Virus record (IMG/VR): IMGVR_UViG_3300024346_000041
Coordinates: 11,405 to 75,404 of that record
Length of the DNA: 64,000 nucleotides
Origin: a virus
Reading direction: 5' to 3' (one strand)
Both the position numbers and the translations under genes were made by a program. Shown one piece after another: positions 463 through 63,452 of the stretch (the stretch's first letter is position 1; every line of letters begins with the position of its first letter). The notes below the pieces were generated by a model. The model was not told where the DNA came from and ran no database searches. It saw nothing but the letters and a program-made list of their open reading frames with translations.

Positions 463-2953
463 GGCAAATACTCCGATTAGTTTAAACTTCCATGCCGGTG
501 TTAGTTGGAACAAGGTGATGTCTATTCTAAACATCAAACCTAGTAGCAGCGCGCTACCAATTGAAATACCTTGCGCTTTCTGCCCAAGCAATCTTACCAT
601 ATATGACGATTACTCCACAACAGGACAATGGTTTTACTGCAAATCATGCCATAAGTCTGGAGACATGATAGAGCTTATGGCTGGAAAGCTTAAAATAACT
701 GTTAGTGAAGCCATTGCAGCGCTAGTAGCTAGCGGGGATATAGATGACTCGCCAGCTAATTACGGTAAAAAGGTACAAGACCTCTTAATACGAACAATAG
801 GCATGAGAGCCAAAGTACTTGAGTTATGGGAAAGGTGTAAAGAAAACAGCAAGAATATGCTACCAGACCACAGGGTCATAGCAGCTAAGATGGGGCTAAA
901 AATAGGTCATAACTGGGAAACGCTAGGAAGCACTCTTGTAGGGTTTTGCAATAAGCTAGACGTAGATAAAGCCCTTACTATGTCAAACAACGGGCATGAC
1001 CACGTAAACCTAGGAAACAACCGAACATTTACAGGAGAAGGATGGGACGAGGTATGCGTAATACCAGCCTTTGACATGCCAGGAAGAATAAAGACGCTTG
1101 TACTAATAGGAAACCTTGCTAGTCCAGAACTAAGAGTAGTGTGCAGGCACATCTCTTATAAGCTGTGGGGACCACACGACAATGAGTGCGGAATGCTATT
1201 CCTTGAAGAAGCATTAAGATCAAACCATACTAACATAGTTGTAAGCGGAGACATGGTAGACACTGTAAGACTCGCCTTAGACTATGTAGACAGGCACAAC
1301 AGTTTTCCACCTATACTAGCCATACCTGAAGACGAAGCAAGGCTGTCGGATGCATGGAGAGCGCTAAGCTCTGAAAACAAAATTATTACAGTAGTAGGTG
1401 AAAAAGCTGAAACACTGTCAGCGTCAAGCTCTGCGATAAGAATAGCTCAAAACCCAGGGTCTTGGGAGGCTGGATGGATGGGACCCTCAAAGTGGATAGC
1501 TAAAGTACATGCAGCTGGCGTTGTTAAAAAGAAAGTGGAGACGTCTCCACTGGATGTAGGTTGGGCAAGAGTAACTTACAACGGAGTTAGTTACGAAGAA
1601 AGACCAGACGGAATATACTGCAAAGAAAAGCTAATGTGCGATGCTATTCTTAAAATAGACAAGATAGCCATAGAAGGTTCTAAGAACTACTACACAGGAA
1701 GAATAAAATGTGGAGGCTTAGAAGCTCCGTTTAAAACTAACATGACTGCTATAGACCAGGCATTCTCAAAGTGGATTAAGGCATTCTGTATTAAAAACGA
1801 TATGCAACTGCCAGTATGTAACAATGGGTACGCTAAAGTCGCAGCAAAGATAGCTCTGCTTTCTAAACCTCCTGATAGAGAAGTACTTACCGCTGTAGCA
1901 GCAGAGAGGCAAGACATAGAATACAACTTCTGCAAGTTTGAAATAAACTCAAAAGGTGAAGTAATAGACATAAACACCTATAGAAAGCTTAACGGAACTG
2001 AATGCTTTATTAACGAGCCTATGACAGCATTTGAAAAAGGAGCCCTGTCAGACGAGAAGTCTGCTCTAGTATGGGCTGTAATAATACCTTGCATGGCTAA
2101 CGCAATAGCCAGCAAGATAGGCTTAGCTACGGTAGGAATAGGGGTAGACCCAGAATCTTTTGAAGATATTAAATTTATTGGAAATAAACTTGGATGCTAT
2201 ACGAATAAACTTACAGGACCAGTATTCACCAAGTCAGTCATATCTACTACATTATCTGACGAGACTAAAAGCACATTACCTGTAGTAATAGCTCCAGATA
2301 AACCAGACGCTCCTATTCAAAGGCTTGGAGTAGAAAAAGCTTCAGGGGCTAGAAACTGCATAATTCCAATGGACTACATGGCCCTACTTGGTTGCAGGAC
2401 CATATCTAGATGGGTATACCTAAAGCCAAGCGCCGTAGAGATAACCAGAGACACTGAATCAGCTTTAAACAAGCTTGCGCTAAGCTTTCTATCTTGGATG
2501 GCAAAAAGCGGTTACAAGACGGCAGGGTTCGATTTAATACACAAAACAGTTAATGCTTTAGAAGAGTGGTGCAACGCAAACAAGATAGCCACTAGCGGTT
2601 TAATCATGGGAGCTACCATGATAGATTCAGACCTGTCAAACAGCCTAAACAAGTCGATAACAAACTCGTTCACTGCTCTGTGTGGTAAATTTAGCAATAT
2701 GGGTTACTTTGAAAAGTCATGTAAGCGTAAGTCAACAAGAGTGGTTAAGTTTGGAGAATCTATGTGGGTAGAGTGCAGAGAGCTATTTAATGCATGTAAA
2801 GCTCACAACGTACCTCTACTTGAACCAAGCAGGCTAGCTCAAGCACTGTTAGCTACAAAAACAATACTAGACTACGCTAACAATCCAGACACAAGAATAC
2901 CTTGCTGGGTGATAGACCCAATTATCTGGGATGAGTGGTCTACCAAGCTTTAG
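461..2953 (+). CDS. primase-like multidomain protein (CHC2-type Zn finger, degenerate DnaG/TOPRIM-like region, unknown C-terminus)
   Basis: CAFC...FYCKSCHKSGDMIELM resembles the primase Zn-binding domain; IPAFDMPGRI and IVVSGDMVD resemble degenerate DnaG motifs. Confidence 0.55.
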   Translation: MANTPISLNFHAGVSWNKVMSILNIKPSSSALPIEIPCAFCPSNLTIYDDYSTTGQWFYCKSCHKSGDMIELMAGKLKITVSEAIAALVASGDIDDSPANYGKKVQDLLIRTIGMRAKVLELWERCKENSKNMLPDHRVIAAKMGLKIGHNWETLGSTLVGFCNKLDVDKALTMSNNGHDHVNLGNNRTFTGEGWDEVCVIPAFDMPGRIKTLVLIGNLASPELRVVCRHISYKLWGPHDNECGMLFLEEALRSNHTNIVVSGDMVDTVRLALDYVDRHNSFPPILAIPEDEARLSDAWRALSSENKIITVVGEKAETLSASSSAIRIAQNPGSWEAGWMGPSKWIAKVHAAGVVKKKVETSPLDVGWARVTYNGVSYEERPDGIYCKEKLMCDAILKIDKIAIEGSKNYYTGRIKCGGLEAPFKTNMTAIDQAFSKWIKAFCIKNDMQLPVCNNGYAKVAAKIALLSKPPDREVLTAVAAERQDIEYNFCKFEINSKGEVIDINTYRKLNGTECFINEPMTAFEKGALSDEKSALVWAVIIPCMANAIASKIGLATVGIGVDPESFEDIKFIGNKLGCYTNKLTGPVFTKSVISTTLSDETKSTLPVVIAPDKPDAPIQRLGVEKASGARNCIIPMDYMALLGCRTISRWVYLKPSAVEITRDTESALNKLALSFLSWMAKSGYKTAGFDLIHKTVNALEEWCNANKIATSGLIMGATMIDSDLSNSLNKSITNSFTALCGKFSNMGYFEKSCKRKSTRVVKFGESMWVECRELFNACKAHNVPLLEPSRLAQALLATKTILDYANNPDTRIPCWVIDPIIWDEWSTKL
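1534..1551. repeat. dispersed palindrome AGTGGAGACGTCTCCACT
   Basis: Exact 18-bp palindrome inside a CDS, read as VETSPL. Confidence 0.95.
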
Positions 2954-4815
2954 GTGTTCCAGCCTGACATTCCTGATTCCATAGACTGCTCTCTAGTAAC
3001 AGAGTACTTGTCCGTCTTAAAGTCAGGCCACCTTCCTGTCATGTGCCATAAACACAAAGCTCCAATGTTGACTGACTGGGCAAAGTCATCAGACATGGCT
3101 GGGTTTCTCTGAATAGTGTAAATATCAGATCCAGCAGCTGTAGTTGTCTTGTTCTCGATTAAGGCTAAAAAGTCTTGAATAAGGCCAGGGTCTTCAGAGC
3201 TAACGTAATCGTAAGCAAAAAATCTTATCTTCTTAGTTCTAATAGCAGAGCACGTAGTAAGCAGGCTTCTAGTTTTATCAGCTCTGTAGTAAGGCCTAGG
3301 GTGAGTTGGAGAAGCCGGAACGTATGTAAACATACCTTTGCTAGCGGCCCTAACGTACTGCACCGGAAGAAGACTAGACGGCGATATACCCGACTGAACA
3401 AGAACTGTTTCTCTGACTACACCTGCTCCTGAGAAGTCATGAGTTATAAACTCGCATTTGTACATTCTGTAGATCTTTAGGCACTCTGCAGCTTCAGCCA
3501 TGTGATCATGAGGTGTAAGCAGACGCTTAGCCCATATAACCTCTATTAGTCCAGTAGCTGTTATTCCCATTACAGCAAGAACGGTCAAGCTTACGCCCTT
3601 CTCACCGCCGCCACCCCAGTCAACTGCTAGTACTCGATGTGCATACTTTTTAAGCATGTCGTCTTTGCAATTAGTTGATGGGTCTCTAGGGTTGTTTTTA
3701 AGGTCTGGATTTGAAGCTGCTTGTAGTTCAAGCATGGACACAAGCTGTAAGCCTGCTCCAGAGCTTTCACCTAGTACTTCGTTTAAGAACTTCTCATGCG
3801 TATAGTTTCCCATCCCTTCTCTCTTTGCATTCAACTCAGCCCACTTATCAGGTCGTGAGTAGTGAATATGCATAATTGGTTGCGGAATATGATAACCAGC
3901 GTAGTTTAACCTTCTTTCAGGGTGTTTGTGAATCCATCTTCCATTTCTAGGATGAATAATAGCGAAGCATTTAGCACAGACTGTGCCGGGACGCTCTTCG
4001 CATATGTCAGCCCTAACCGGGCCAATCATGGCAATAAGGTCATGGTTAACAGATGAAACATTTAGATACTTGCAGGCGCTACAGGTTATACACCACTCAG
4101 CCTGTGAAGATGACAGCCATTCTCTTTCAATGGTGTTATCAAGTGTCTTAGGGGTTCCAGCTAACTTCATAGTACCCCATTCGCTAGCTGACATGGTTTC
4201 ACGGATAACTGGTATATGGTCACCATCCATATCCTGAACTTCGTCAATAACCACTTGATCAGCACGAATACCACGCACTCGGTCGGCGTCGAGTAAGGCA
4301 AACGAGAACTGCATCATGCTGTTGTTGCGAAAGCTTCGCTGCAAAACGCTGTTCTCTGTCTCTGGGCCTATCAATACTGATTTAACCGGAGACTGCTCTA
4401 TAAAAGGGCGAACGTAGTTACTGGATAGGCGGCGCACCTGTTCAAACAAAGGAGTAATATAAAGGTTTCTAAAGTAAGGTATAGTGGCACAAGTTATAAC
4501 TCCATGCGCCGAGATAACCGTGCTTTTACCAACCTGACGCCCAGTCTTCAATATGGTGCGCCTAGGCATATAAACATTGAAGAGTGACTCAAATTGATAG
4601 TGCTTTTCTAAGCTGTAAGGTTTACCATCGAGATTGAGTATTGCTGGTAGAATACAGGATAGGTTGGGAATACCTCCCTGTTTTATTCTGGCTACTACTT
4701 CGTCTAGGCTCTTTTGGCTTTTAGAGGCTTTATCTGTTGGGTTTGGAGTACTAATCATGTTATACAGAATCTCTGAGAGGGTAGAGGACGAGTATGGTTC
4801 TGACGGATACAGCAT
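2950..4815 (-). CDS. terL: terminase large subunit (GpA-like)
   Basis: Walker A KTGRQVGKST, Walker B VVIDEVQD, GTPKT coupling motif, Cys-rich insert, FLNEVLG, nuclease motif AVDWGGG; true start may be downstream (MISTPNP). Confidence 0.9.
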   Translation of the reverse strand: MLYPSEPYSSSTLSEILYNMISTPNPTDKASKSQKSLDEVVARIKQGGIPNLSCILPAILNLDGKPYSLEKHYQFESLFNVYMPRRTILKTGRQVGKSTVISAHGVITCATIPYFRNLYITPLFEQVRRLSSNYVRPFIEQSPVKSVLIGPETENSVLQRSFRNNSMMQFSFALLDADRVRGIRADQVVIDEVQDMDGDHIPVIRETMSASEWGTMKLAGTPKTLDNTIEREWLSSSQAEWCITCSACKYLNVSSVNHDLIAMIGPVRADICEERPGTVCAKCFAIIHPRNGRWIHKHPERRLNYAGYHIPQPIMHIHYSRPDKWAELNAKREGMGNYTHEKFLNEVLGESSGAGLQLVSMLELQAASNPDLKNNPRDPSTNCKDDMLKKYAHRVLAVDWGGGGEKGVSLTVLAVMGITATGLIEVIWAKRLLTPHDHMAEAAECLKIYRMYKCEFITHDFSGAGVVRETVLVQSGISPSSLLPVQYVRAASKGMFTYVPASPTHPRPYYRADKTRSLLTTCSAIRTKKIRFFAYDYVSSEDPGLIQDFLALIENKTTTAAGSDIYTIQRNPAMSDDFAQSVNIGALCLWHMTGRWPDFKTDKYSVTREQSMESGMSGWNT

Positions 4816-4946
4816 GGCTGATTCAATGGAGCCGATAGGCCTAGCCTGTCTTATAGCTCTATTGATGGTCTTAGCCTTCGCTGGATTCTAGCCTTGTAAG
4901 CCCGTTAGGTACATACACTTACTTTAAAAAAAGAGGTAAAGTTTCA

Positions 4947-9938: not shown

Positions 9939-10601
9939 ATGAACGAGCCACAGTACGTAGTAGTAGAATATTATGAATCTGATAGAGGAGGTAAGCCTGG
10001 TGATAAAGGAAATAAGCTAGCTATTCATAGATTAGAAAATGGAGAAGTTGCAGCCGCTGAAGACGGCGCTCCTGAATCACAAGAAGAAGCTTTGAGAATG
10101 CTACAGGCCTTTCACAGGCCAATATACAAATCGATAGACGTTGCTAATGACGAGTGCGACAACGTTCTAGAGTATGCAGGCGATGGAGACGTCTCCACTG
10201 ACGAAGCTTTTAAAGAAGCTAAGTACGAAGTGGAAACCACTATACCCAACATGCTTATAGGTAACATACTAAAAAGCATTCCAACTGGAACTTATCACAA
10301 GCTAGTCCTAGTGGAGTCTTCTAAGCTAAAGTGGTTTATGAAAATTGTTAGCTTCAGAAACTGCGGGGCAAAGGTAAGTGACGAGCTCAAAAGACTTGGA
10401 ATGAAAGTTCCTGACCCTAAGTACTGGGTAGAGTGCTTTATATACAAAACCAAAGAAAAAGAAGAAGGCTTGGACTATGTAGGTAGCTGCTTAGTTGGCA
10501 AAGAGCTAACAGAACTGCATCTTAGTAAATACGCAGCTACAGGAGACGAGCTGTTTAATGACGAGCTATGGGAGGATAACCGTGCCAAAAGTAAAAACTA
10601 A
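9939..10601 (+). CDS. hypothetical protein
   Basis: AAGGAG RBS; contains a palindrome copy at 10184. Confidence 0.7.
   Translation: MNEPQYVVVEYYESDRGGKPGDKGNKLAIHRLENGEVAAAEDGAPESQEEALRMLQAFHRPIYKSIDVANDECDNVLEYAGDGDVSTDEAFKEAKYEVETTIPNMLIGNILKSIPTGTYHKLVLVESSKLKWFMKIVSFRNCGAKVSDELKRLGMKVPDPKYWVECFIYKTKEKEEGLDYVGSCLVGKELTELHLSKYAATGDELFNDELWEDNRAKSKN
10184..10197. repeat. dispersed palindrome core TGGAGACGTCTCCA
   Basis: Inside a CDS, read as GDVST. Confidence 0.95.
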
Positions 10602-15520: not shown

Positions 15521-15867
15521 TAGTTTTACTTTTAAAGGAGAAAGCCATGGATGGACTAGCTACCTGTATTGCAACCGGATTAGTTGGATTTTCTAATGAT
15601 AAGGATCCGGTTGACTTTGTTAAGGACCATATTTTACGTAAAACTATACTTACAAATATTGACTTAGTGTTCAAAGATACAGCTAATGAAATAGTTTTAT
15701 CAGCAACCGCTGATAACGGTAAGTTCTTTAGTTGTTGCATACAAACTCCTAAAGCTCCTGAACAGGAAGAGCTTCTCACAGGCTACATGTCTGAATTAAG
15801 AAAGCAGTTCTGGGAAGCTATGCAAGAATGTGAGAACTTCGTAGCTGGTGAGAGCTTGCAGTGGTAA
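15484..15867 (+). CDS. hypothetical protein (likely start 15547)
   Basis: AAGGAG RBS before MDGLA. Confidence 0.6.
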   Translation: MFRENRCVFEKVVVLLLKEKAMDGLATCIATGLVGFSNDKDPVDFVKDHILRKTILTNIDLVFKDTANEIVLSATADNGKFFSCCIQTPKAPEQEELLTGYMSELRKQFWEAMQECENFVAGESLQW

Positions 15868-16175
15868 AATTTAGGCTGACAAACTCTTACTTGGAGGTAA
15901 GTAGAATGGCTATTGATCTAAATAAAGAAGACGAGCAGTTGGAGACGTCTCCAAAGCTTAGGAAAGAAGGTAAGGTTCAAATAGACAAGGTTATTATTAA
16001 TAACCTTTCTAAACTTGTTACCTACCCTGCTGGGTATATAAAGTCTGAAGCTATAAACGTTTATAGCGACAGGTGGCGGGTTAACATATGGACACTTGGC
16101 GATAACAACGCCAGAGTTGAAGGTTCTTGGTTTGTAGTAGCTGATCCTAAGGGCGCTGTAGTTTCTTTTAACTAG
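15861..16175 (+). CDS. hypothetical protein (likely start MAIDL at 15906)
   Basis: GGAGG RBS; AINVYSDRWRVNIW; contains a palindrome copy at 15939. Confidence 0.6.
   Translation: MVKFRLTNSYLEVSRMAIDLNKEDEQLETSPKLRKEGKVQIDKVIINNLSKLVTYPAGYIKSEAINVYSDRWRVNIWTLGDNNARVEGSWFVVADPKGAVVSFN
15939..15954. repeat. dispersed palindrome TTGGAGACGTCTCCAA
   Basis: Inside a CDS, read as LETSPK. Confidence 0.95.
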
Positions 16176-21752: not shown

Positions 21753-21921
21753 GGTTAAACTTGCCAACAGTTTTTGTTTTGTCTTCTAATCTACTAACTA
21801 CTACATGAGCTGGAGCTTCTATTCCTATTTTTACCTGGTTACCACTTATACGAATTATTTTTATTACGATATCGTTTGATATCATTATAGACTCTTCTAC
21901 TTTTCTTGATAGTACTAACAT
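21736..21921 (-). CDS. csrA: carbon storage regulator CsrA/RsmA
   Basis: [14 protein letters not shown]...VKIGIEAP...V.R.E. Confidence 0.9.
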
Positions 21922-41547: not shown

Positions 41548-41558
41548 TAGTTAACCTA

Positions 41559-41585: not shown

Positions 41586-41616
41586 ATAATACATATATAA
41601 ATAAGGAGATAGATAC

Positions 41617-43386: not shown

Positions 43387-43400
43387 CGAAAGGATTTCTA

Positions 43401-43784
43401 ATGAAAGATAACAGTAAAACTGGTGGAAACTTGTATGTAGAGATGAGCAGGTCTGCCAACATACCTTTAGAGGTTAGTGACAGCCCATCATGTGCAGCTT
43501 CCGCTCCTTATAAGTACTTGGAGGTTGCTCTACAGTATGTACCTTCTTGTGACAAAGAAGTAGCTAGCACTTTAGAGGCTTTTGACCGAGATTGGTTCAA
43601 GACTCTTGTAGACTTTAACCCTTCTATAAATAACCTTGGCGATGCTGTAAAGGAAGCGGCCAATGCTCTCATTTCTCAAGTTAACCCAGCCCAAGTAGAG
43701 ATGCTTGTTAGCTTGTCTAATGACGTGGACAAGCTTGGGTTTTGTAGTAAGACTGTTAAGTTTTCATGGTCTAAACCAGAGTAA
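43401..43784 (+). CDS. hypothetical protein
   Basis: AAGGA RBS. Confidence 0.6.
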   Translation: MKDNSKTGGNLYVEMSRSANIPLEVSDSPSCAASAPYKYLEVALQYVPSCDKEVASTLEAFDRDWFKTLVDFNPSINNLGDAVKEAANALISQVNPAQVEMLVSLSNDVDKLGFCSKTVKFSWSKPE

Positions 43785-43790
43785 CCCACC

Positions 43791-44981: not shown

Positions 44982-45008
44982 TCTTTTCTTTTACAACTGA
45001 GGTGATTC

Positions 45009-45917: not shown

Positions 45918-45924
45918 GGTTATA

Positions 45925-46674
45925 TTGAGCACTACGATATGCTGTTTGATGTACGGAGACTACCCTAAGCTGGCTTTAAGGTGTTTAAACCCTATAAGCC
46001 AGCTTTATAAAAGCGGAGTCGAAGTTAGAATAGGACTAAACGAAACGTCTGAGGCTACCAATAAGGTAGTCTCAGATCTTTTCATTAATAGCGACAGGTT
46101 AGTCAACCTTAGCTTTAACCCACAGATATTCAAATACCCTATGATGGATAGGCTTTTCAAGGCAAAGCCTATTACCACCGACTACGTTATGTGGTTCGAT
46201 GACGATAGCTTTATAAAGGACTCTAATCCATTGGCGTGGCTGTCAGCTACTGAGAAGTTTATGAACGATAGCGAATCAGACATGGCAGGCGCTATATACC
46301 ACATACCCATATTACCAGGACAGACCGAGTGGAGACGTCTCCACTGCGACTGGTTTGTAAGTGGACCTCTTCCTGGAAGACCAGAGATGACAAAGTTTGC
46401 TACAGGAGGTTGGTGGATTATTAAGACAAGTGTGATAAACAAGTATAAGTGGCCTCATCCAATGCTTAAGCATTGCGGAGGGGATGTCCTTTTAGGCGAG
46501 CTAATAAGGCATCAAGGTCTTAAACTTTCAAGCTATAAGGCTGGCGTCGCTGTAAACGCAGACGATAACGGAAAAGAATCTGCATCTGATAGACGAGGCT
46601 ATAACGAGCCACCTCTTGGTTCTAAGAAGTCTCAGATTGAAGTATGGAATGACAGATTTAAGAAAGAAGGGTGA
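45925..46674 (+). CDS. glycosyltransferase (GT-A fold)
   Basis: YVMWFDDDSF, FATGGWW, GGDVLLG. Confidence 0.7.
   Translation: MSTTICCLMYGDYPKLALRCLNPISQLYKSGVEVRIGLNETSEATNKVVSDLFINSDRLVNLSFNPQIFKYPMMDRLFKAKPITTDYVMWFDDDSFIKDSNPLAWLSATEKFMNDSESDMAGAIYHIPILPGQTEWRRLHCDWFVSGPLPGRPEMTKFATGGWWIIKTSVINKYKWPHPMLKHCGGDVLLGELIRHQGLKLSSYKAGVAVNADDNGKESASDRRGYNEPPLGSKKSQIEVWNDRFKKEG
46328..46345. repeat. dispersed palindrome AGTGGAGACGTCTCCACT
   Basis: Inside a glycosyltransferase gene, read as EWRRLHC. Confidence 0.95.
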
Positions 46675-46677
46675 TTA

Positions 46678-47586
46678 ATGTTTAGCAGGAGGCTTAGTGA
46701 TGAGAAGGTTAAGGTGTCTTCGTCGAAAATACTCAACACTCGCAAGCGGGTTGTTGATGCTCTCATTCCTTTTTGTGGCAGCATTCTTACAAGCGATTCT
46801 ATTAGTTCTGCTTCAGCTGCTTTATCATTTTGTATTCCAAAGGCATGCATAGACTTTGCTTTCTCTCAAGATATGCTTCTTAGATATTTAAGGCAGCCTA
46901 TTACAGTACGCGACGTAGAGGCTATAGCTGCAAAGATAGCTGGTAACATGCCTCTTCTAATGCAAGGCGAACAGGTTAAAGATACTGACTGGAGAATAAG
47001 GTCTGACTGGGGCCTTATAAAGATAGTAAGCATAGAGAAGGCTGTGAGGTTGTTTAAAGACGGGAATAAGCAGAGAGGCATATGGGTAGACCTTGATGTT
47101 ATGAGCGGGCCAGCTAGCTCAATGCTATATAGAAGGTTTTGGTCATCAGACATGTGCAACTATGCAAAGTATAGAATAGGTTTTAGTAGAAGCGAAGATA
47201 ATAATAAATACCCATATCTAGATGAATCTAACTTTACAAGTCTGTACTTCCTAGGTTACTTTGATCACCTAGCGGTTAGGGAAAAGCCTGACTACACAGA
47301 ATTTCTATGTAATGACTATGTAGTATCTAAGAACAGAGAATTGCTTAGAAAGCGGTACAGGGCTATACATAGGAATGAAGAATTTACTTGTCCACGTGAG
47401 TACCCTGTAACAGTTAATTGTCATAGGTGCCCAGCAGGTTTAAGTGAATGCGAGGCAGCTACTCATCTGAACACCTATCAAGAAAAGCACTGTGAAGTGT
47501 GTAATAAGGTGTCTTGGGTAGACCCAGGAAAGCCAGGTAAGTGTGTTGATTGCGTAATCAGTACTAGTTTAAACTTAGTAGATTAA
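46678..47586 (+). CDS. hypothetical protein with Cys-rich C-terminus
   Basis: CP...CHRCP...CEVC...CVDC. Confidence 0.65.
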   Translation: MFSRRLSDEKVKVSSSKILNTRKRVVDALIPFCGSILTSDSISSASAALSFCIPKACIDFAFSQDMLLRYLRQPITVRDVEAIAAKIAGNMPLLMQGEQVKDTDWRIRSDWGLIKIVSIEKAVRLFKDGNKQRGIWVDLDVMSGPASSMLYRRFWSSDMCNYAKYRIGFSRSEDNNKYPYLDESNFTSLYFLGYFDHLAVREKPDYTEFLCNDYVVSKNRELLRKRYRAIHRNEEFTCPREYPVTVNCHRCPAGLSECEAATHLNTYQEKHCEVCNKVSWVDPGKPGKCVDCVISTSLNLVD

Positions 47587-47597
47587 AGGAGAAAGTT

Positions 47598-48101
47598 TTG
47601 GCAACTAACATTTTAGGTCATGTGGATCGCAGGAGATATAACCCTTCAAGAGACATAGCATATTGCTGGCCTAGTATCATGCAGTCTGCCATGGACAGGG
47701 TAAGCAAGGGCACAGGCCTCCCATGGTTTATGAGCTTAGTTAAAAAGCACCAAGTAACTGATGAGGCGCTTTCAAAAACTGCTAAGGCCATTGCGCACTA
47801 CATGGCTGCTTGTAACAAACCTGACGAATGTCCAAGTAATGTTAAGGATGCTATGGAAAAATCAGGATTATTTGAGTGTGATGAGACAGCAAAGATGTTA
47901 CTCTACGCCGCCTTAGGTGAAACAATGATGGCAGCCTTTTATTCATCTATACGAGACGTCCTTGTAGAAGATGAGCCTTCACCTTTGAATGATAAGAGGC
48001 TAATTGAGCTGGTTGGATCTTCAATGGACAGGATTTTCTATAGTAGAAGGTCAGCTTTGGGAAGGGTATGCGATAAGGTTGTTTCTTTTTTTAAAAAATA
48101 G
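47598..48101 (+). CDS. hypothetical protein
   Basis: AAGGAG RBS, TTG start. Confidence 0.65.
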   Translation: MATNILGHVDRRRYNPSRDIAYCWPSIMQSAMDRVSKGTGLPWFMSLVKKHQVTDEALSKTAKAIAHYMAACNKPDECPSNVKDAMEKSGLFECDETAKMLLYAALGETMMAAFYSSIRDVLVEDEPSPLNDKRLIELVGSSMDRIFYSRRSALGRVCDKVVSFFKK

Positions 48102-48113
48102 TTAGGAAGTCTT

Positions 48114-48896
48114 ATGGTAGATGAAGAGTCTGATGTGTGGATGGCAAAGGTAGTATCTAAGCTTGGACCTCTACCTTCCAACTACATAGTGTTTGATGTT
48201 GAGTCAACAGGCTTAGATTTATCAAACGATTTAGTGGTGCAGTTGGGGTACGTACTGGTACACAATCGCACCTTGGTAGACTGCGGTAGTTTTATAGTAG
48301 ACTGGACTCATAATAGCAGCCCAGACTTCTGTTCTTGGCTTGATAACCGCATGGCTTTTACTAAGAATGCTATGGACTCTAAGAACCCTGGAGAACTTGG
48401 CACCTCCGTATATAAGCACAGCATTGAAAGAATGAAGCAACATGGCATACCTGCCTATGATGCTTTCACTCACTTTATGGACATAGTTAAACTGTGTAAG
48501 TCTAATAAATTTAGCTTTATAGCGCATAACGGTCTTAGGTTTGATCAGCCAATGATAGATAGGTGTGTAAAGCAGCTTAGAGGCGACAACGAGAGCTTCA
48601 GCATTGAAGGCTCAGGTATGAGCTACTTTGACACTATGGGACTAGAGCGTGGAAGTCAGTGTAAGCTAACTCCTAACCCTGGTGACGATTGGTTCAGCTT
48701 TAACGTAAGGCTTATAAAAGAAGGTGGAAGGCTTTACAGCTCTTTAGACAAACACTGCTCTAAGAAGTACGATTTAGTGAATAAGCACAGCCTTCAAGGA
48801 AGTGCTCACGAGGCTGACTTTGACTGTAAGCTTACTCACCATCTTTTTGAAGAGTTTAGAGAGATGTCTGAACGAGGTTTTAAGAAAGTAAACTAA
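48114..48896 (+). CDS. DEDDh 3'-5' exonuclease (DnaQ-like)
   Basis: VFDVESTG, AHNGLRFD, AHEADFD. Confidence 0.85.
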   Translation: MVDEESDVWMAKVVSKLGPLPSNYIVFDVESTGLDLSNDLVVQLGYVLVHNRTLVDCGSFIVDWTHNSSPDFCSWLDNRMAFTKNAMDSKNPGELGTSVYKHSIERMKQHGIPAYDAFTHFMDIVKLCKSNKFSFIAHNGLRFDQPMIDRCVKQLRGDNESFSIEGSGMSYFDTMGLERGSQCKLTPNPGDDWFSFNVRLIKEGGRLYSSLDKHCSKKYDLVNKHSLQGSAHEADFDCKLTHHLFEEFREMSERGFKKVN

Positions 48897-48907
48897 TAGG
48901 GGTTTGA

Positions 48908-49519
48908 ATGAAACATGACATGGAAAGATGCCCAGACGCTTTAAAGTCAAAGGTATCTTCAGAGAGACCTGAAGGTACTATGACAGTTCTGGGATTAGAT
49001 TTAGGTACATCTTGTGGCTACTCTTATTGTTTTTTAACTAAAGGCTCTTCTGATAGAAGAATGCACGCTGGTCAGCTGGACTTATCAGCTGGCCCATATG
49101 ACTCAGGGGCTATAAGGTTTATAAGGCTAAGGCACTTTCTAGCCGCTATCAAGCCGGACCTTGTGGCATTTGAAGACGTCAGGTACACTCCTCCGAATAC
49201 AGGCTTTCAAAGCGTTGGTGCTTTGTTAGCTAGGGCAGCCCCCGCTTGCGAGTGGTTTGGTGCTCTTAAGGCTACTGTGGCTACTTGGTGTGAGGCGCAG
49301 GGAATACCTAGTACAGGCATTCCTATCGGCACTATTAAGAAAAGGGCAACTGGAAAAGGAAACGCCAATAAGAGCGATATTATTGCTGCGTGCAATAAAG
49401 AGTTTGGTTTTAACTTTGAAGTAGAAGGCTATGAAAGCACCGGTGTGGATAACATAGCTGATGCAGTTTATGTTTGCTCTGTTTTGATAGAGCAGTATGG
49501 TTCAGGATTAGAGTTTTAA
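48908..49519 (+). CDS. ruvC: RuvC-like Holliday junction resolvase
   Basis: VLGLDLGT, VAFEDV, IKKRATGKGNANK, DNIADA. Confidence 0.85.
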   Translation: MKHDMERCPDALKSKVSSERPEGTMTVLGLDLGTSCGYSYCFLTKGSSDRRMHAGQLDLSAGPYDSGAIRFIRLRHFLAAIKPDLVAFEDVRYTPPNTGFQSVGALLARAAPACEWFGALKATVATWCEAQGIPSTGIPIGTIKKRATGKGNANKSDIIAACNKEFGFNFEVEGYESTGVDNIADAVYVCSVLIEQYGSGLEF

Positions 49520-49536
49520 TTATATGAAAGGGTTAT

Positions 49537-50532
49537 ATGAAGAAGTCGTTTGATAGTTCAAGTCAAGTAAAGGCTGCAGAAACAATATTGTCAGCTCCCA
49601 GCGCAGAATCCACAACAGCTTACTTTATGGACGCTTTAAGGTTATCCCAGATGCTGCAGTGGAGGGCCATAGAGGACCTAGAGGCTCAAGCTAAAGCTGC
49701 AGGCGCATCAGAGGAAGCTATAGTAAGGCTTAAGAAGGACGTGCTATCTTTAGCTAGGACCACCCCTATTGATAAGTGCATGCTTCCAAAGACTTGTATG
49801 AGAGTAGCCGGTTATCTTGCAAAGTCTATTCCTAACCACAAGAGGGATATGACATCAAACTTAAGCAAGAAGACTGCTGCCCTTAAAAATGTGATAGTAG
49901 GTGCAGATAAGAAGCGTAACCAGGCTTATAGGTTTGATGCAGGAATGACTGATCCTATATCTGCGTCTATTCCCATGATTGTATTTGGAAAGAGAAAAGA
50001 TCTGGACTGTGTTATATCTCACATTCTAAATTGCGCTGAGAACAACTTACAGAACTGTTTGCACCTTAGCATGAAATCTTACAACAAGAAGTTTAACAAG
50101 TATTACAGGAAGATACATCCAGACGATTGGACTGACAAGCTAAGGTCAAAGGATGGTTTGTTCTCTTTGATCAAAGAGTCAAGCAAGCTAACTCCACTAA
50201 ACCTTCTGCTAGTAGATGAGCTATGTCATGGGTTTAACCCAAAGGCCACAGCTGCTGAGCGCAGGCTCGGATCTAAGATAGGAAGAAAGGGTAGGTATAA
50301 GGAAGCTCTGTGCTGCTTTAAGAGATGTAGGACAAACACCTCAGTAAAAGGTATCTGCACTATAGCGTTCCACTCCACTGACAGTAACATTGGAGAGCAG
50401 AATCAAGAAGTAACTAAATCTTTTTACGACTTAGGTTCTCCGTTCGATTGTTTGTCAGATAAGAAGTCAGTGTGGTTGGTAGACCGCTTAGGTAATGTAA
50501 CCTTAACTATTGCAAGGGCTGACCATGAATAA
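49537..50532 (+). CDS. hypothetical protein
   Basis: Long ORF; LLLVDE without a Walker A. Confidence 0.6.
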   Translation: MKKSFDSSSQVKAAETILSAPSAESTTAYFMDALRLSQMLQWRAIEDLEAQAKAAGASEEAIVRLKKDVLSLARTTPIDKCMLPKTCMRVAGYLAKSIPNHKRDMTSNLSKKTAALKNVIVGADKKRNQAYRFDAGMTDPISASIPMIVFGKRKDLDCVISHILNCAENNLQNCLHLSMKSYNKKFNKYYRKIHPDDWTDKLRSKDGLFSLIKESSKLTPLNLLLVDELCHGFNPKATAAERRLGSKIGRKGRYKEALCCFKRCRTNTSVKGICTIAFHSTDSNIGEQNQEVTKSFYDLGSPFDCLSDKKSVWLVDRLGNVTLTIARADHE

Positions 50533-51187
50533 TAAGAAGCTAAGCCAAGAGGAGATAGAGTCTAGGCTTGAAGGTGTACCAGAAACTACGCTAGAAGGTA
50601 GAGTACCTGTATCCGAAGGTGTAGTCGATGGCGGCATAGACAACCCAACATTAGAGGATCTTAAGAAACTACCTCCTTTAAAAAGGGTTGAGCTTTCAGA
50701 CTCACTTCATAGCCTTTCTAATGACTTTGTATTCTTTAACCACACAGCCCTGTTCTCCAAAGGAGGACTAGACTTTGACCCTCTTAAGGAGTATCAGATA
50801 TGGGCTGATAATCAGGACTTGGTCAGCTATGTTATCTTTAACAGAAGCATATTTAGTGGCCTTGATTATCCTGATAACAGTGGCGGTCATGACTGTATGC
50901 TCTCATTTGTTCCAATAGAGCACTGGCATGTTATAGAAAAAGCTATAGGCAAGTTTACAATACTTAATCGTGCAAAAGGTCATATGTTTCTTTGTGAGAT
51001 GGTCAAGGTTAGAATACCAGACCCTAAGCAACCGAGCTTGACTATAGAGCCTTATCTGTGGAAGATGAACGGCTCAAGCCATAGCTGGGATTACAAAGGC
51101 TTTCCAGTTCCTAAACTAGTTAAGTTACCAGCTAGCTATGAAGCTAAGTATTTAATGAAAGTAGTAAACAATGAACCATCCAACTGA
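50510..51187 (+). CDS. hypothetical protein
   Basis: Operon context. Confidence 0.6.
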   Translation: MQGLTMNNKKLSQEEIESRLEGVPETTLEGRVPVSEGVVDGGIDNPTLEDLKKLPPLKRVELSDSLHSLSNDFVFFNHTALFSKGGLDFDPLKEYQIWADNQDLVSYVIFNRSIFSGLDYPDNSGGHDCMLSFVPIEHWHVIEKAIGKFTILNRAKGHMFLCEMVKVRIPDPKQPSLTIEPYLWKMNGSSHSWDYKGFPVPKLVKLPASYEAKYLMKVVNNEPSN

Positions 51188-51467
51188 TTTTATATATCGC
51201 AAAACAAAAACGTTCGTAGAGGAGAGAGTTTACGAACGACCTGCTGGAGCTACTCCAGACGATTGGAGGCTTGTACGCATAAACGAGCCATTGGACGACA
51301 CTATCAACGAGTGGCTGTTAAATAACCAGTTTACCATTGTTGCAACATCTGCTCCTGGAATGGACAGCAGATGGTTAGACAAGGAGATGACCAGAAGGTC
51401 AGTTCTGGTGGCCATAACCGTTATTTATGAAGGTAACCAAAATGGACAATGGCCTGAACGAAAGTGA
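51171..51467 (+). CDS. hypothetical protein
   Basis: Operon context. Confidence 0.55.
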   Translation: MNHPTDFIYRKTKTFVEERVYERPAGATPDDWRLVRINEPLDDTINEWLLNNQFTIVATSAPGMDSRWLDKEMTRRSVLVAITVIYEGNQNGQWPERK

Positions 51468-51783
51468 TTCGGGCCAGACAGCGAAGGATTTATATCACAT
51501 CGTTGTTGTACCCTCTCATGGTTATCCTGAGTGTTTATCTTTCAATAGCAAGGAAGACTTTGTAGAGAAGCTCCGTTCTTACAACGGCAAGCGGGTGAGT
51601 TGTCACGTTTTTTATGGAGAGCGGATGCACATATCCCTTCCTCCACGCAAGCTAATCAATTCAGATGGACAGGTAGAGGCTGACCTTTCTTACGAGCCTA
51701 AGAGTACAGAATTAGACCCTAACGGCTCCATGTTTGACGACATGGAGGTGTTTGACGACGATGATGAGTACTTCAAGTCTTAG
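51427..51783 (+). CDS. hypothetical protein with acidic tail
   Basis: Operon context. Confidence 0.55.
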   Translation: MKVTKMDNGLNESDSGQTAKDLYHIVVVPSHGYPECLSFNSKEDFVEKLRSYNGKRVSCHVFYGERMHISLPPRKLINSDGQVEADLSYEPKSTELDPNGSMFDDMEVFDDDDEYFKS

Positions 51784-51786
51784 CTA

Positions 51787-51818
51787 AATCCAGACCATAA
51801 ATGCGTCATAATATAGTG
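51787..51818 (+). promoter_or_regulatory. repeated phage promoter-like motif (copy C)
   Basis: AATCCAGACCATAAATGCGTCATAATATAGTG, 28/32 identical to 63421..63452. Confidence 0.7.
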
Positions 51819-51848
51819 CTACCTTATGGGTGGCAGAAAGGGGCGGCC

Positions 51849-52133
51849 ATGTTTGAAAACATTGTGGCAGGCCTTGTAATAACCTCCTTTGTAGTGACCC
51901 TTTTATGGGTCAACTTTTCAAAGGGTAAATCTGGGCGGGTAGCCCAAGACGGTGCGGGCCCTGGTTACAGGCCCCACGTTCAATACGCCGGAGCACTACG
52001 AGAAGTGGTCCGGCGGAAGGCTCAGAGTGATGGCCAAGTGGCCTGTACTCTGAGGCCTGATACGAAAGGGGCCCCAAGGCCCCAGCTTACTGTCTCGAAA
52101 GACAGTATTCTATGGGTAAAGAAGAAATTTTAA
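51849..52133 (+). CDS. small membrane-anchored protein
   Basis: The track ATG at 51801 lies inside the promoter motif; GAAAGGGG precedes ATG 51849; N-terminal TM helix. Confidence 0.5.
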   Translation: MFENIVAGLVITSFVVTLLWVNFSKGKSGRVAQDGAGPGYRPHVQYAGALREVVRRKAQSDGQVACTLRPDTKGAPRPQLTVSKDSILWVKKKF

Positions 52134-53062: not shown

Positions 53063-53824
53063 ATGTCAGATTCAAGACTAGCACCAGTTACAGGAGGGTC
53101 TACTATAGACCACAGCAGAAAAGTTACTAAGATGATCGTAGACCCACATGAGAGCGACTCCTTTGTTATTGATTTAAATACTATTAAGTCACCAGACAAC
53201 CCTTATAAGGTTAAAGATGATGGCAGTCAAGATCTTAGAAAGTTAGCTCAAGCAGAAAGGTCCAAGATGATATCTGACAATTTAAGAAGGTTTTCTACTA
53301 CTTCTTCATCTACTACACCTCCCAGTCTAGGCACAGTAGCATCTACCATCGATGGGGCTAATCATGTTCATCCTGCTGCGCAGCTACCAGAGGCGTCAGT
53401 TACGCCTCCTATGGTAAGGGTGTATTTTGACATGCCAAGCTTAGCTACTTTAAATTACAAGTATCACGGGGCTGCAATAACTCCAGGTTACTTAGTACTT
53501 ACTACTGACATGCGTTACGCAGGTCCTGGAGAGTTTTATCCGTTTACCAGCAAGTTAGCTAATGAAGCTGACGCTTACATAGGCGTAATGGTTGAAGGTA
53601 TAGACAGCCTATTTATAGTTAAGCCTCCAATTCTTCAGCATAAGTTTGGTCCCTACGAGCATTGCTTAGTACCTATCTCTCAAGAGAAGCCTATGCCGCC
53701 TGAGCTAATAAAAGAGCTAGTTGAAGATAAGCCAGTGGAGACGTCTCCACAAGAAGAGTATGATGATAGCGCTGTAAAAAGCGACGTTGACTCTGCAAAA
53801 GTTATAGAAGAAGGCGTCCTTTAA
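53063..53824 (+). CDS. hypothetical protein upstream of the portal
   Basis: AAGGA RBS; palindrome copy at 53735. Confidence 0.65.
   Translation: MSDSRLAPVTGGSTIDHSRKVTKMIVDPHESDSFVIDLNTIKSPDNPYKVKDDGSQDLRKLAQAERSKMISDNLRRFSTTSSSTTPPSLGTVASTIDGANHVHPAAQLPEASVTPPMVRVYFDMPSLATLNYKYHGAAITPGYLVLTTDMRYAGPGEFYPFTSKLANEADAYIGVMVEGIDSLFIVKPPILQHKFGPYEHCLVPISQEKPMPPELIKELVEDKPVETSPQEEYDDSAVKSDVDSAKVIEEGVL
53735..53750. repeat. dispersed palindrome GTGGAGACGTCTCCAC
   Basis: Inside a CDS, read as VETSPQ. Confidence 0.95.
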
Positions 53825-58540: not shown

Positions 58541-60457
58541 ATGAGAATAAAAGCCCTGTTTAACAAACATATCGGTAAAGACATATATGTGGTAGGCACA
58601 GGGCCCACTGTTAGGCTACTTCCAAAAGGATTTTTTAAAGGAAGAATAACTATAGGCCTTAACCAGGCTTATAAAGTTATGGAACCTACATACAATCTGA
58701 CAGCTCATCCAGAGCTAGAAGTTGAATATAGATCTCTTTTAAGAAAAGGAAAGGTAAAGAAAACTACTTGGGTCGTAAAGCATAAGACTCCTACTTATTT
58801 AAAGTTAGAAGATAAGGCAAGATACGTATTTCACACCTCAGACGATTGGAAAGACTTTATAGGAGCTAAGCCTGACGTTTTGTTTCTTGGAAAGGGTATA
58901 CAGCTAACTGCTATAGATTTAGCCTGTCGCATGCGTGCTAGATCTGTTATTCTAGTTGGAGTAGACCTAGGGTCTGTAGCTGGGGACCACCACGGGCATA
59001 ACCAGCATGTTAGATTTAATGGCCTTCCTGCTTCAGAAGTCTATAGAGAGTATAGACTATGGACCTATAGGGCTAGAAAGCTAGCTAGAGAAAAGTTAGG
59101 AATAGCTGTATTATCGCTATCTCCCTTGTTAGGGTGTGGCGGCGATGTGCATCAAGAAGATTATGCACAGTTTATAAAAGAACTTGGTTTGTTGGGGTTA
59201 CCTAGACCTCAAGACATATCCAGGTACAAAAGAGTTGGAATAGATTTACCTTTAAATCAGGAGTCGAGAATGACAAGCAGGTACGACCATCTTACGTCAG
59301 CGATTAAGGACACCATTAACAACAGTAAGAATAATAAGCCTTACCGTATAGTTGAGGTTGGAGTACATAACGCAGACAGGTCAGCAGCCTTGGTAGCTTT
59401 GGCTAAGAGGCTTGGTAGAACTAACATTGAGTTCTACGGGTTTGATATGTTTGAAGACGCTACAGAACAGATTAAAGAAAGGGAGCACTTACAGGGTCAA
59501 TCTGATCCAGTAAGCAGAGATTTAGCCAGACAGAAGATTACAGCTGCAGGAGCCAGCTTAGTACAGCTTGTTAAAGGTGATACTAGAGTCACGCTTCCTA
59601 CAGCTAGCGCTGACATGCCAAACGTTACCATAGTCAGTATTGATGGAGGAAGATCGCCTGAGACCATTGCGTCTGATTTGATGTTTCTTCTTAGAGTATG
59701 TGTGCCTGGTACTAAGATAGTAATTAATAACTGCATTCAGTCTAACTACTGTGTAGGTTCAGCTTTCCTTAGCAAGTCCTACAGCCTTTTGAAAGACAAC
59801 TACGGAGTCACAGTAGACGAAGTGTTGCCAGAGGATGAAGTTGGAGGCGTTAACGTAAGATGTATTGTAGCATCTTGTTCTTACCAGCTTACTCCTAGCA
59901 AGCTTAGCGGTCTTGATAGCCTTCTTCTATTGGAGGCGTCTCCACTACCAGACCCAGAGCCAAAAGAAGCTAATCCAATCGACACCTTTATCGACAATGT
60001 ACCTTCTGTCGATGAGCTAGTTGAAGTTAATTCGGTTAAAGAGGAGGAGGCCAGCCCAGCAGCTGTTGAGACGTTTCCAGCCTCTGGTGGCTGTTGTAAT
60101 ACCGACGTACAATCAGTTCGATTATGCGAGGATAGCTGTGGAAAGCCTGCTGGCGAGCTCTGCGAACAGCTTGGCGGTAGTTGTGGACGACGGGAGCCCC
60201 GAGTGGAATCCTGCCATGTGGGAGAAGTATCCGAAGCACCGTCTGCTCCTGTACAGATTCGAGAAGAACGACAAGAATCTGACAAGGTCGTGGAACAAGG
60301 GAATACAGTTAGCCCTGAGCCTGAATCCAAAGATAATAGTGTCGGGGAACTCAGACCTGAAGTTTCCACAGAATTGGATACTGGGAATCGAAGAGGCTCT
60401 AGAAGGCGCCGCAGGCGTAGTGGGACCGACGACGAATGCACCGGGCCACAGAGCTAG
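58541..60457 (+). CDS. DUF115/Maf-like domain fused to a class I SAM methyltransferase and an overprinted acidic tail
   Basis: YVVGTGPT...ILVGVD; internal AGGAG-ATG at 59270; IVEVGVHNA, YGFDMFE, KGDT, IDGG. Confidence 0.65.
   Translation: MRIKALFNKHIGKDIYVVGTGPTVRLLPKGFFKGRITIGLNQAYKVMEPTYNLTAHPELEVEYRSLLRKGKVKKTTWVVKHKTPTYLKLEDKARYVFHTSDDWKDFIGAKPDVLFLGKGIQLTAIDLACRMRARSVILVGVDLGSVAGDHHGHNQHVRFNGLPASEVYREYRLWTYRARKLAREKLGIAVLSLSPLLGCGGDVHQEDYAQFIKELGLLGLPRPQDISRYKRVGIDLPLNQESRMTSRYDHLTSAIKDTINNSKNNKPYRIVEVGVHNADRSAALVALAKRLGRTNIEFYGFDMFEDATEQIKEREHLQGQSDPVSRDLARQKITAAGASLVQLVKGDTRVTLPTASADMPNVTIVSIDGGRSPETIASDLMFLLRVCVPGTKIVINNCIQSNYCVGSAFLSKSYSLLKDNYGVTVDEVLPEDEVGGVNVRCIVASCSYQLTPSKLSGLDSLLLLEASPLPDPEPKEANPIDTFIDNVPSVDELVEVNSVKEEEASPAAVETFPASGGCCNTDVQSVRLCEDSCGKPAGELCEQLGGSCGRREPRVESCHVGEVSEAPSAPVQIREERQESDKVVEQGNTVSPEPESKDNSVGELRPEVSTELDTGNRRGSRRRRRRSGTDDECTGPQS
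59931..59944. repeat. dispersed palindrome, one mismatch (TGGAGGCGTCTCCA)
   Basis: Inside a CDS, read as LEASPL. Confidence 0.7.
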
Positions 60458-62492: not shown

Positions 62493-62858
62493 ATGGACGT
62501 CCTAGCTGTAAGAAAAGAAGAGAAGTTATGGGGCCGCAACCATATCATTCACTTAGATAACTCCTTTCAGATATGCCACATACACATCCTCAAGGGCGGG
62601 TACTGCTCTAATCACTTTCATCAGAGCAAGTGGAATCAATTCTATATCGTCTCGGGTAAGCTAATGGTCAGCTGCTATAACCCAGATGGCACTATAAAGA
62701 GCACCATCATTCTTAGACCTACCGAGTGCATCAAGATACCACCAGGCTTAAACCATAAGTTCGAAGCTATAGAAGAGACTGAAGCTTTAGAGATCTATTG
62801 GCCTGAGCTATCGGAGCACGATATCGTGCGTACAGACATAGGCGGCATCAAGTCTTAA
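62493..62858 (+). CDS. cupin (mannose-6-phosphate isomerase-like)
   Basis: KLWG, CSNHFH..KWNQFYIVSG, IPPGLNHKF, DIVR. Confidence 0.75.
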   Translation: MDVLAVRKEEKLWGRNHIIHLDNSFQICHIHILKGGYCSNHFHQSKWNQFYIVSGKLMVSCYNPDGTIKSTIILRPTECIKIPPGLNHKFEAIEETEALEIYWPELSEHDIVRTDIGGIKS

Positions 62859-62920: not shown

Positions 62921-62924
62921 GGCT

Positions 62925-62969
62925 AGTGGAGACGTCTCCACTTAATTCAACCAATAAGTGCGTCATAAT
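62925..62969 (+). promoter_or_regulatory. palindrome plus promoter module (copy A)
   Basis: 43/45 identical to 63402..63446; ends in TGCGTCATAAT. Confidence 0.8.
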
Positions 62970-63346: not shown

Positions 63347-63354
63347 TTACGATT

Positions 63355-63398
63355 CACATCATGCCTTCGGGCATGGTGTGTTTCTTTTTTAGCTATCA
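63355..63398 (+). terminator. Rho-independent terminator with C(UUCG)G loop, ending in TTTTTTAGCTATCA
   Basis: CACATCATGCC-TTCG-GGCATGGTGTG plus T tract. Confidence 0.85.
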
Positions 63399-63401
63399 AC
63401 C

Positions 63402-63452
63402 AGTGGAGACGTCTCCACTTAATCCAACCTATAAGTGCGTCATAATATAGTG
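63402..63452 (+). promoter_or_regulatory. palindrome plus promoter module (copy B)
   Basis: AGTGGAGACGTCTCCACTTAATCCAACCTATAAGTGCGTCATAATATAGTG. Confidence 0.8.

Follow-up and report, generated by a model that had tools for sequence, protein, structure and literature searches.

The 64-kb window analyzed here (64,000 nucleotides, bases 11405-75404 of the 75,404-bp IMG/VR virus contig IMGVR_UViG_3300024346_000041) carries nine exact copies of one palindromic word, the 14-mer TGGAGACGTCTCCA, most of them inside genes. The contig has a CheckV completeness of 36%, and the phage genome is ~190 kb. The phage palindromes form an evenly spaced lattice, and this observation is robust. They are likely to be a protein-binding lattice on the DNA, and a 302-aa protein encoded in the window is a tentative candidate for the protein that reads them. 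Literature searches place the 12-mer in no phage context and give no description of such a lattice arrangement; the lattice of this phage genome is undescribed so far.

The palindromic word and its conservation

In 100 dinucleotide-preserving shuffles of the window, TGGAGACGTCTCCA gives a mean of 0.08 matches and a maximum of 1, compared with the nine exact copies observed (Table 1). Mismatched copies are located at 59931 (one mismatch) and 60066 (two mismatches), and a tenth lattice site lies upstream of the window on the source contig. The maximal palindromes around the nine exact copies measure 14-22 bp. The original prediction for this DNA had listed nine exact core copies and the one-mismatch copy at 59931; the same count and coordinates are recovered, and each palindrome start that it gave coincides exactly with that of a maximal palindrome. 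Of the exact copies, seven fall within plus-strand open reading frames (ORFs), in all three codon phases, and read as (V/L)ETSP, GDVST or WRRL(H/Q), which confirms the seven intragenic copies, including those in sbcC and primase, that had been predicted with the readings ETSP, GDVST or WRRL. The gaps between the intragenic copies are 5.8-13.4 kb, close to the earlier estimate of about 6-13 kb, and the last two exact copies, in the palindromes at 62925 and 63402, are intergenic.

We compared the window with G1, a genome of 190,371 bp (92% complete) with ~90% DNA identity to the window contig, and with G2 (181 kb), G10, G16 and G17, which carry the same word and are ~69-71% identical to G1 in DNA. 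The original prediction had asked for counts of the word in relatives, and the word is enriched there too. G1 contains 23 exact and three one-mismatch sites, with the exact copies extending across 15-185 kb, and G2 contains 14 copies, where 0.00 are expected in each. At least ten IMG/VR contigs, independent of each other and from separate samples, contain the word, which rules out the assembly artefact raised earlier as an objection.

A sequence logo built on 47 copies in three genomes defines the full site word as the 18-bp palindrome A-K-TGGAGACGTCTCCA-M-T, i.e. A-[G/T]-TGGAGACGTCTCCA-[C/A]-T, and conservation ends there, with no conserved base outside the palindrome. The central ACGT is two-fold symmetric and invariant in 47/47 copies examined. 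Regarding the flanks, the left/right pairs over 59 sites in five genomes are G/C (28), G/A (14), T/C (9) and T/A (3), which equals the product of the marginals. The predicted co-variation of the flanks (GT..AC versus TT..AA) is thus not upheld; the two flanks vary independently of each other, and this fits two separate half-site contacts.

The distribution of the sites deviates from random placement. In G1, the gaps between sites have a coefficient of variation (CV) of 0.47, compared with 0.96 for random placement (p<1e-4), the spacing is ~7.7 kb and the largest gap is 16 kb, where 29 kb is expected. Even spacing is also found in G16 (CV 0.46, p 0.0009), G17 (0.36, p<1e-4) and G2 (0.59, p 0.007). 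This regularity points to an action of limited range by which the whole genome must be covered.

The positions of the sites are conserved between lineages. Each G1 site was mapped via its host protein onto the four other lineages, and a site with at most one mismatch was counted as kept. The word stands at the same codon in 32 of the 46 site-by-genome comparisons where a homologue exists, across five lineages with ~70% DNA identity and in three frames, whereas chance would give ~2 of 46 (calculated from 0.7^14, one mismatch allowed). The codons around the conserved sites diverge freely between lineages. Since same-codon conservation is seen in all three frames, selection acts on the double-stranded DNA word and overrides the protein sequence. 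The earlier claim of selection on the DNA and not on the protein agrees with this result, and the word is conserved in relatives, the lack of which would have spoken against the original prediction. Essential genes unrelated to each other have long kept the word, each at its own codons, and pay for it with fixed amino acids. The intragenic share is 22/26 sites in G1 and ~80-85% overall.

Sites have also been gained. The SbcC site (14-mer at 25110) is missing from G2, G10, G16 and G17 without any indel (VETSP versus ILEPT), and its presence in the G0/G1 lineage is therefore a gain by substitution, the mode of origin in orthologues that the original prediction had raised. At the position homologous to the WRRLH site (46328), both an in-genome paralogue and the distant relatives G6-G9 have ordinary sequence. 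Indels are common beside sites.

The word was also searched in 185,579 prokaryote species genomes. The 18-mer has seven single-copy matches there, in unrelated and mostly high-GC taxa, and none of these seven stretches resembles the phage in tblastx. A host origin of the word was rejected, as no prokaryote genome among these species contains the 18-mer more than once; the same absence supports the earlier description of a phage-specific site. The word is a practical marker for fragments of this phage clade in metagenomes.

A second word is found in the distant clade G6-G9, which consists of terminase relatives with ~52-55% identity, ~200-kb phages of high GC (G6, a 154-kb contig with 60% GC; G7, complete with terminal repeats; G7-G9, ~55% GC). 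G6 contains 30 copies of WWAGATATCTWW (consensus CAAAGATATCTTTG) and 40 copies of W3-GATATC-W3 in 154 kb, where ~0.2 are expected. Its lattice sites are mostly intragenic, in three frames (KDIF, ERYL and KISF), with a spacing CV of 0.61 (p 0.0004). The two lattice words have the frame AGA-YR-TCT in common. In a two-domain glycosyltransferase, the G6 and G1 sites lie within ~15 bp of the same homologous position, and the words differ. No strict palindrome lattice is found in G7, G8 and G9. In these three genomes, GATATC is 1.8- to 2.5-fold over expectation, and W3-GATATC-W3 occurs 21, 12 and 10 times, compared with <1 expected, at sites that are only mildly conserved among them. This excess resembles a relaxed form of the strict palindrome lattice of G6. 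Two other repeats considered as lattices, GATATC-N3-GATATC in G1 and CCTGTTGCGCC in G7-G9, were rejected, both being tandem coding repeats. A scan of viral contigs for the AT-rich G6 14-mer gave mostly single chance hits, with no further G6-type genome among the matches listed.

Table 1. Lattice sites and the candidate reader in the window (positions in the window; start of the 14-mer given separately)
Feature	Position	14-mer start	Strand	Context	Relatives and remarks
Lattice site, 18-bp palindrome AGTGGAGACGTCTCCACT	1534-1551	1536		inside 830-aa ORF 461-2953, reads VETSP	orthologous site in G1 (174093), G2 and G10
Lattice site, 14-bp core only	10184-10197	10184		inside 220-aa ORF 9939-10601, reads GDVST	lineage-specific; G1 163795; two mismatches in G2, none in G16
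Lattice site, 16-bp palindrome	15939-15954	15940		inside 104-aa ORF 15861-16175, reads ETSP	G1 158093; one-mismatch orthologous sites in G2 and G16
Lattice site, 22-bp palindrome	25106-25127	25110		inside SbcC/Rad50-like ATPase gene 23969-26083 (Pfam), reads VETSP	not in G2, G10, G16 and G17 orthologues
Lattice site	32913-32926	32913		C-terminal end of primase gene 31932-32990 (PHROG), reads WRRLQ; 57 bp before DNA polymerase start	G1 141075; kept in 4/4 other lineages
Candidate reader, 302 aa	45009-45917		+	HTH; ParB/Noc/KorB-type DNA-binding domain fold (~32-176), C-terminal coiled coil (184-288), both predicted	
Lattice site, 18-bp palindrome	46328-46345	46330		inside 249-aa ORF 45925-46674, reads EWRRLH; 411 bp past stop of candidate reader	same codon in G2, G10, G16 and G17
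Lattice site, 16-bp palindrome	53735-53750	53736		inside 253-aa ORF 53063-53824, reads VETSP	G1 118555; kept in G10, G16 and G17
Degenerate site TGGAGGCGTCTCCA, one mismatch	59931-59944	59931		inside 638-aa ORF 58541-60457	same one-mismatch site in G1 (112363); one-mismatch site also in G16
Intergenic lattice site	62925-62942	62927		abuts promoter-like module CTTAATTCAACC..TAAGTGCGTCATAAT, to 62969	module found without palindrome elsewhere in G1
Intergenic lattice site	63402-63419	63404		between terminator-like hairpin (63355-63380 plus T run) and second promoter-like module copy (to 63446)	

A candidate reader of the word

A 302-aa protein encoded in the window (Table 1) is a plausible, still tentative, reader of the lattice word, as judged from its sequence and a predicted structure. 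Its AlphaFold (AF2) model has a pLDDT of 75.8 and comprises a helical domain (residues 32-176), a long coiled coil (residues 184-288) and a disordered segment (residues 1-30), with no nuclease domain. The top Foldseek hits of the model are all ParB, Noc or Spo0J. In VIA-align, the DNA-binding domains (DBDs) of ParB, Spo0J and Noc align to the candidate over 100-119 residues with Z scores of 8.2-9.2 and a root-mean-square deviation (rmsd) of 3.2-3.9, and SopB (5.7) and VirB score lower. In a search independent of Foldseek, the parS-bound ParB DBD and Spo0J rank 1-2 of 48,161 chains, and the KorB DBD (1r71) aligns over 109/114 residues with a Z score of 6.7.

The predicted helix-turn-helix (HTH) is the best-conserved part of the candidate. 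It has the invariant sequence LSxALxVDKSTVYKTITFS, followed by LTWSHF and KLSVR (candidate plus 14 of 16 homologues aligned), among homologues whose identity goes down to 36-40% and whose C-terminal half is variable; the invariant residues include D91, S93, T94, Y96, K97 and T98. All close homologues come from IMG/VR contigs that bear the word, and in each of these the full 18-mer lies 410-520 bp past the gene stop. The gene is located within a replication/recombination module that contains RecA-like, helicase, polymerase, primase and SbcCD genes.

The hallmarks of ParB partition systems were searched separately. The ParB N-terminal CTP-binding domain PF02195 is not found in G1, G2, G3, G6 and G7 by six-frame searches with positive controls. 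For a ParA-type ATPase, PF13614 gives no match in G0, G1, G2, G7 and G16, and PF01656 gives one sub-threshold match of 14.9 bits, in G1. Thus, with neither a CTPase domain nor ParA, the system is not a member of the parABS or KorB families. The parS/matS-like system of the original prediction survives in its palindrome format, its dispersal in coding DNA and the presence of a protein with a predicted ParB/Noc-type fold in the window, but not in membership of the parS/ParB family.

The distant clade contains a related protein. In G7-G9, a syntenic ORF of ~300 aa shows weak C-terminal similarity to the candidate in a profile search, and its protein family has >240 members, many with DUF1016_N matches. 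The candidate and this G7-type family are collinear but weakly similar (hhalign E 0.0056, probability 6.6%), and the recognition-helix sequences are very different. An independent model of the G7 positional orthologue gives Z scores of 7.8 for Spo0J, 6.6 for the ParB DBD and 5.8 for the KorB DBD. Two DNA-binding domain types are thus found with two words, and this pattern of sequences would fit a reader that co-evolves with its word. A wider reading is speculative. In this 'address lattice', an uncultured family of ~200-kb phages would carry a clade-specific word every 4-8 kb, read by a coiled-coil dimer that has a ParB DBD and no CTPase domain, and the word and the DBD would have switched together between clades, from a AGACGTCT core to a AGATATCT core. 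Such a lattice would be an undescribed type of genome-organizing system in phages, close to ParB, Noc and KorB in fold and not in mechanism.

Several points weigh against the candidate and against the role proposed for it below. First, the structural evidence is of middle rank, since Z scores of 8-9 (6-8 for the orthologue) are in the range that the tool calls middling for helical domains, and sequence searches of the candidate against the PDB gave only coiled-coil noise. Pfam returns a weak, sub-threshold DUF1016_N match (E 1.3e-4). Second, G7, G8 and G9 have the protein family but only the degenerate W3-GATATC-W3 excess, the co-variation of domain type and word covers two clades only, and the G6 contig does not include the region expected to hold its copy of the reader. 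Third, most genes of the phage have no recognizable domain, so a reader other than the 302-aa protein is possible. Finally, even spacing, intragenic position and gene neighbourhood are all the evidence that bears on a role in organization or marking.

Other candidates for the reader were tried and rejected. Profiling for a reader common to both lattice clades and missing in G7 gave only sugar genes (cupin, glycosyltransferases and O-methyltransferases), and six-frame searches with HTH_35 and HNH gave nothing useful. Four small ORFs of 35-62 aa are conserved between G1 and G2, none an evident DNA binder. A weak tblastn match of the candidate in G6 falls in an unrelated 135-aa ORF.

Proposed role, alternatives and known systems

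To our knowledge, almost nothing is known about the in-cell DNA organization of large phages, which replicate, transcribe, recombine and package genomes of ~200 kb within minutes. In the explanation that we favour, a phage-encoded symmetric dimer would bind each palindrome on double-stranded DNA, with one half-site per subunit. The reader would be the 302-aa protein, in which the ParB/Noc/KorB-type HTH domain would contact the DNA and the long coiled coil would hold the two subunits together. Having no CTPase domain and no ParA, it would stay on its sites as a fixed anchor, with neither a sliding clamp nor partition. About 25 anchors at ~7.7-kb intervals would provide every part of the 190-kb genome with a nearby bound dimer. 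These anchors may organize the replicating phage DNA by bridging or compacting it via the coiled coils; alternatively, they may mark the DNA as phage for the replication, recombination or packaging machinery. Since the gene lies in the replication/recombination module, anchor points that organize or mark replicating DNA are favoured. Taken as a whole, this explanation (dimer lattice, 302-aa reader and organizing anchors) is the one towards which we lean on balance; the specific role, organization or marking as opposed to regulation or cleavage, is doubtful when taken by itself. Confirmation of the reader would imply that the ParB DNA-binding module can work as a genome-wide anchor without a CTP switch.

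The best-surviving alternative, which we consider unlikely, is that a global transcription regulator uses the sites as its operators to time or silence phage genes. Precedents exist in KorB on RK2, the dispersed C1 operators of phage P1 and the conserved inverted repeats of phiC31. G1 has seven copies of a promoter-like module, CTTAATYCAACC..TAAGTGCGTCATAAT. Where a module in the window or in G1 has the palindrome, the palindrome stands in fixed register directly upstream of a -35-like TTAAT, centred ~42 bp before the predicted start. Some intergenic sites of G2 lie directly before ribosome-binding sites, and intergenic sites are ~3x over-represented (4/26, compared with ~5% non-coding DNA). 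However, the palindrome abuts only 3/7 of the modules, which are near-identical duplicates, and G2 (69% identity) does not have the arrangement, its intergenic sites standing in other contexts. In addition, a sigma-70 consensus scan, which finds the terminator at 63355-63380, does not call the modules. The ~80-85% of sites inside genes lie at arbitrary relative positions, and even spacing is not expected of operators. KorB likewise has sites far from promoters (PMC11790492), but its long-range action needs the CTPase clamp domain, which is missing here. A local operator role is possible and a general one is not supported; the operator role at promoter modules that was proposed originally is at most local.

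Several features of the intergenic sites were noted in passing. A promoter-like word, TAA(G/A)TGCGTCATAAT, is repeated at 62955-62969, 63432-63446 and ~51798-51812, with CTTAAT ~9 nt upstream. G1 has it seven times as well, and the sigma-70 consensus scan does not call it. It may be the promoter type of a phage sigma factor, as G1 ORFs have Sigma70_r3 and Sigma70_r4 matches. The G2 intergenic sites at 162869 and 44543 are just upstream of the ribosome-binding site and start of the next gene, with GGAG/GGAGG following the word. At the intergenic site G1 80188 / G2 156237, ATG follows the word directly, and the word's own GGAG stands 9 nt before this ATG. The ~40 nt after this site, ATGTTGGTAGTTCGGTGTAACCCATARCCGGGTTAATACCCGG, are conserved between G1 and G2 and include a hairpin-like segment; ARAGORN finds no tRNA beside it.

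Cleavage provides the next alternative, an improbable one, in which the sites are targets of a phage site-specific nuclease or nickase that makes breaks for recombination-dependent replication, for clamp loading or as T5-like virion nicks. Even spacing would suit entry points, the phage has SbcCD-like, RecA-like and helicase genes, and HNH-type matches are found in the clade. However, cleavage at a perfect palindrome would sever both strands and fragment the genome ~25 times, whereas the phage nick sites known to us have no symmetry and are strand-specific. None of the nuclease genes stands consistently beside a site, HNH is strong only in G2 and the candidate reader has no nuclease domain.

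It is very improbable that the phage copies the binding site of a host protein, for example a MetJ-like repressor, in order to recruit or titrate it. The central 8 bp, AGACGTCT, are a perfect match to the E. coli met-box consensus (MetJ), the phage has many methyltransferases that consume S-adenosylmethionine, and two clades of different GC, hence probably of different hosts, use different words. In the window, 9/10 occurrences of AGACGTCT belong to exact lattice sites. MetJ needs tandem boxes, but here the box is single at each site, no tandems are found and the conserved word is 5 bp longer on each side. The prokaryote search also opposes this idea, as no species genome has the 18-mer more than once.

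Action of the word in RNA, as a hairpin for processing, stability or pausing in long co-directional transcripts, is highly improbable. As almost all genes share one strand, transcription passes through every site, and the 18-mer folds into a 7-bp hairpin (-9.6 kcal/mol). However, the loop ACGT is self-complementary and invariant, which a two-fold DNA site needs and a hairpin does not, and the second-lattice word AAAGAUAUCUUU does not fold (0.0 kcal/mol); downstream of the sites there is neither a T-run nor another RNA signal. The invariant self-complementary centre and the unfoldable second word thus argue that the word is read as a site on double-stranded DNA.

A functionless by-product, either a mobile palindromic insertion or the footprint of restriction-modification or repair, is barely credible: indels are common beside the sites and the word contains AatII (GACGTC) and Esp3I (CGTCTC) sites, but GACGTC, GAGACG and CGTCTC are near or above composition expectation outside the word, so neither avoidance nor targeting by restriction accounts for the word, the SbcC site was gained by substitution without length change, the spacing is more even than random, and positions orthologous in five lineages, not scattered anew in each genome, largely refute this alternative.

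Among known systems, the lattice resembles several in part. RK2, an IncP-1 plasmid of 60 kb, has 12 OB sites, some by promoters and some far from any. As with KorB-OB, one palindromic word is found many times over a mobile genome, one per few kb, and the candidate reader has a putative ParB-type HTH DBD fold in its predicted model. KorB works as a sliding clamp that depends on CTP; it has a ParB N-terminal domain and the partners KorA and IncC (ParA) (PMC11790492); the phage system has neither ParB_N nor ParA, its word is unrelated, most of its sites are intragenic and its spacing is even. ParB-parS and Noc-NBS, and by format MatP-matS and SlmA-SBS, likewise have perfect palindromes tolerated in coding DNA, of 14-16 bp and read by dimers. 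Unlike in ParB-parS and Noc-NBS, there is no CTPase domain, ParA or origin clustering here, and the word has no sequence similarity to parS or NBS. T5-like phages have localized single-strand interruptions at asymmetric, strand-specific sites, and these nick sites are also short words at kilobase intervals in a large phage genome, but the word here is a perfect palindrome.

The closest published analogue is the repeat of Cluster O mycobacteriophages (Corndog and relatives), a 17-bp word, TGTTCGGNNNCCGAACA, in 34 copies, some in coding regions and most away from promoters (PMC4351075). The host genomes checked do not contain the repeat, and its authors predict a dimeric binder and describe the function as unknown; the phages encode a ParB-like domain protein (PMC4351075). 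Both systems have many invariant inverted-repeat copies phage-wide that are not tied to promoters, and the word described here is not multi-copy in any of the prokaryote genomes searched. In contrast to the present sites, the spacer within the Cluster O repeat is 3 bp long and asymmetric, and the repeat occurs once per 2 kb in a 70-kb genome and is mostly intergenic or at gene starts. Neither even spacing nor conservation at orthologous codons nor a switch of word was reported for Cluster O, whose word, phage group and host are unrelated to the present case. If the 302-aa reader is confirmed, it would offer a handle on such unexplained dispersed repeats of other phages, Cluster O included. In Cluster A mycobacteriophages, too, a single short word, the stoperator, is scattered in many copies along the genome; stoperators are bound by one phage protein (L5 gp71) and are asymmetric, oriented with transcription and intergenic, in temperate phages (PMC4351075), whereas the sites here are symmetric and ~85% intragenic.

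Genome context and neighbouring genes

The cultured phages closest by terminase are Salmonella phage Arash and Vibrio phage D69, at ~29% identity, and a megablast of window positions 40000-52000 (12 kb) against GenBank phages gave no match. No integrase or partition genes are among the Pfam hits listed, and the phage appears lytic. The Pfam inventory of 188 G1 ORFs includes Sigma70_r3, Sigma70_r4, weak HNH, weak HTH_35 and CsrA, and no classical repressor.

The CsrA homologue is a 61-aa protein encoded on the minus strand of the window (21736-21921) and conserved in G2, with a Pfam CsrA match of E 5e-21 for the G1 copy. As CsrA is an RNA-binding global regulator, the phage protein could redirect host translation. 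Sugar-pathway genes are common to G1, G2 and G6 and missing in the lattice-free G7; they lie at window positions 62493-62858 and 19724-20539 and at contig bases 820-2745. The set consists of a cupin, a 271-aa protein and a GT9+GT2 two-domain glycosyltransferase, together with O-methyltransferases elsewhere in G1. Their distribution may be a coincidence or may be linked to DNA or virion glycosylation.

Regarding other repeats, G1 has tandem 9-bp repeats (CCTTGATAT/G) within ORFs close to the end of the contig (L121:1014-1100 and 4857-4910), which are probably repeat-rich genes of the fibre type, and the CCTGTTGCGCC repeats of G7-G9 encode collagen-like GXY repeats.

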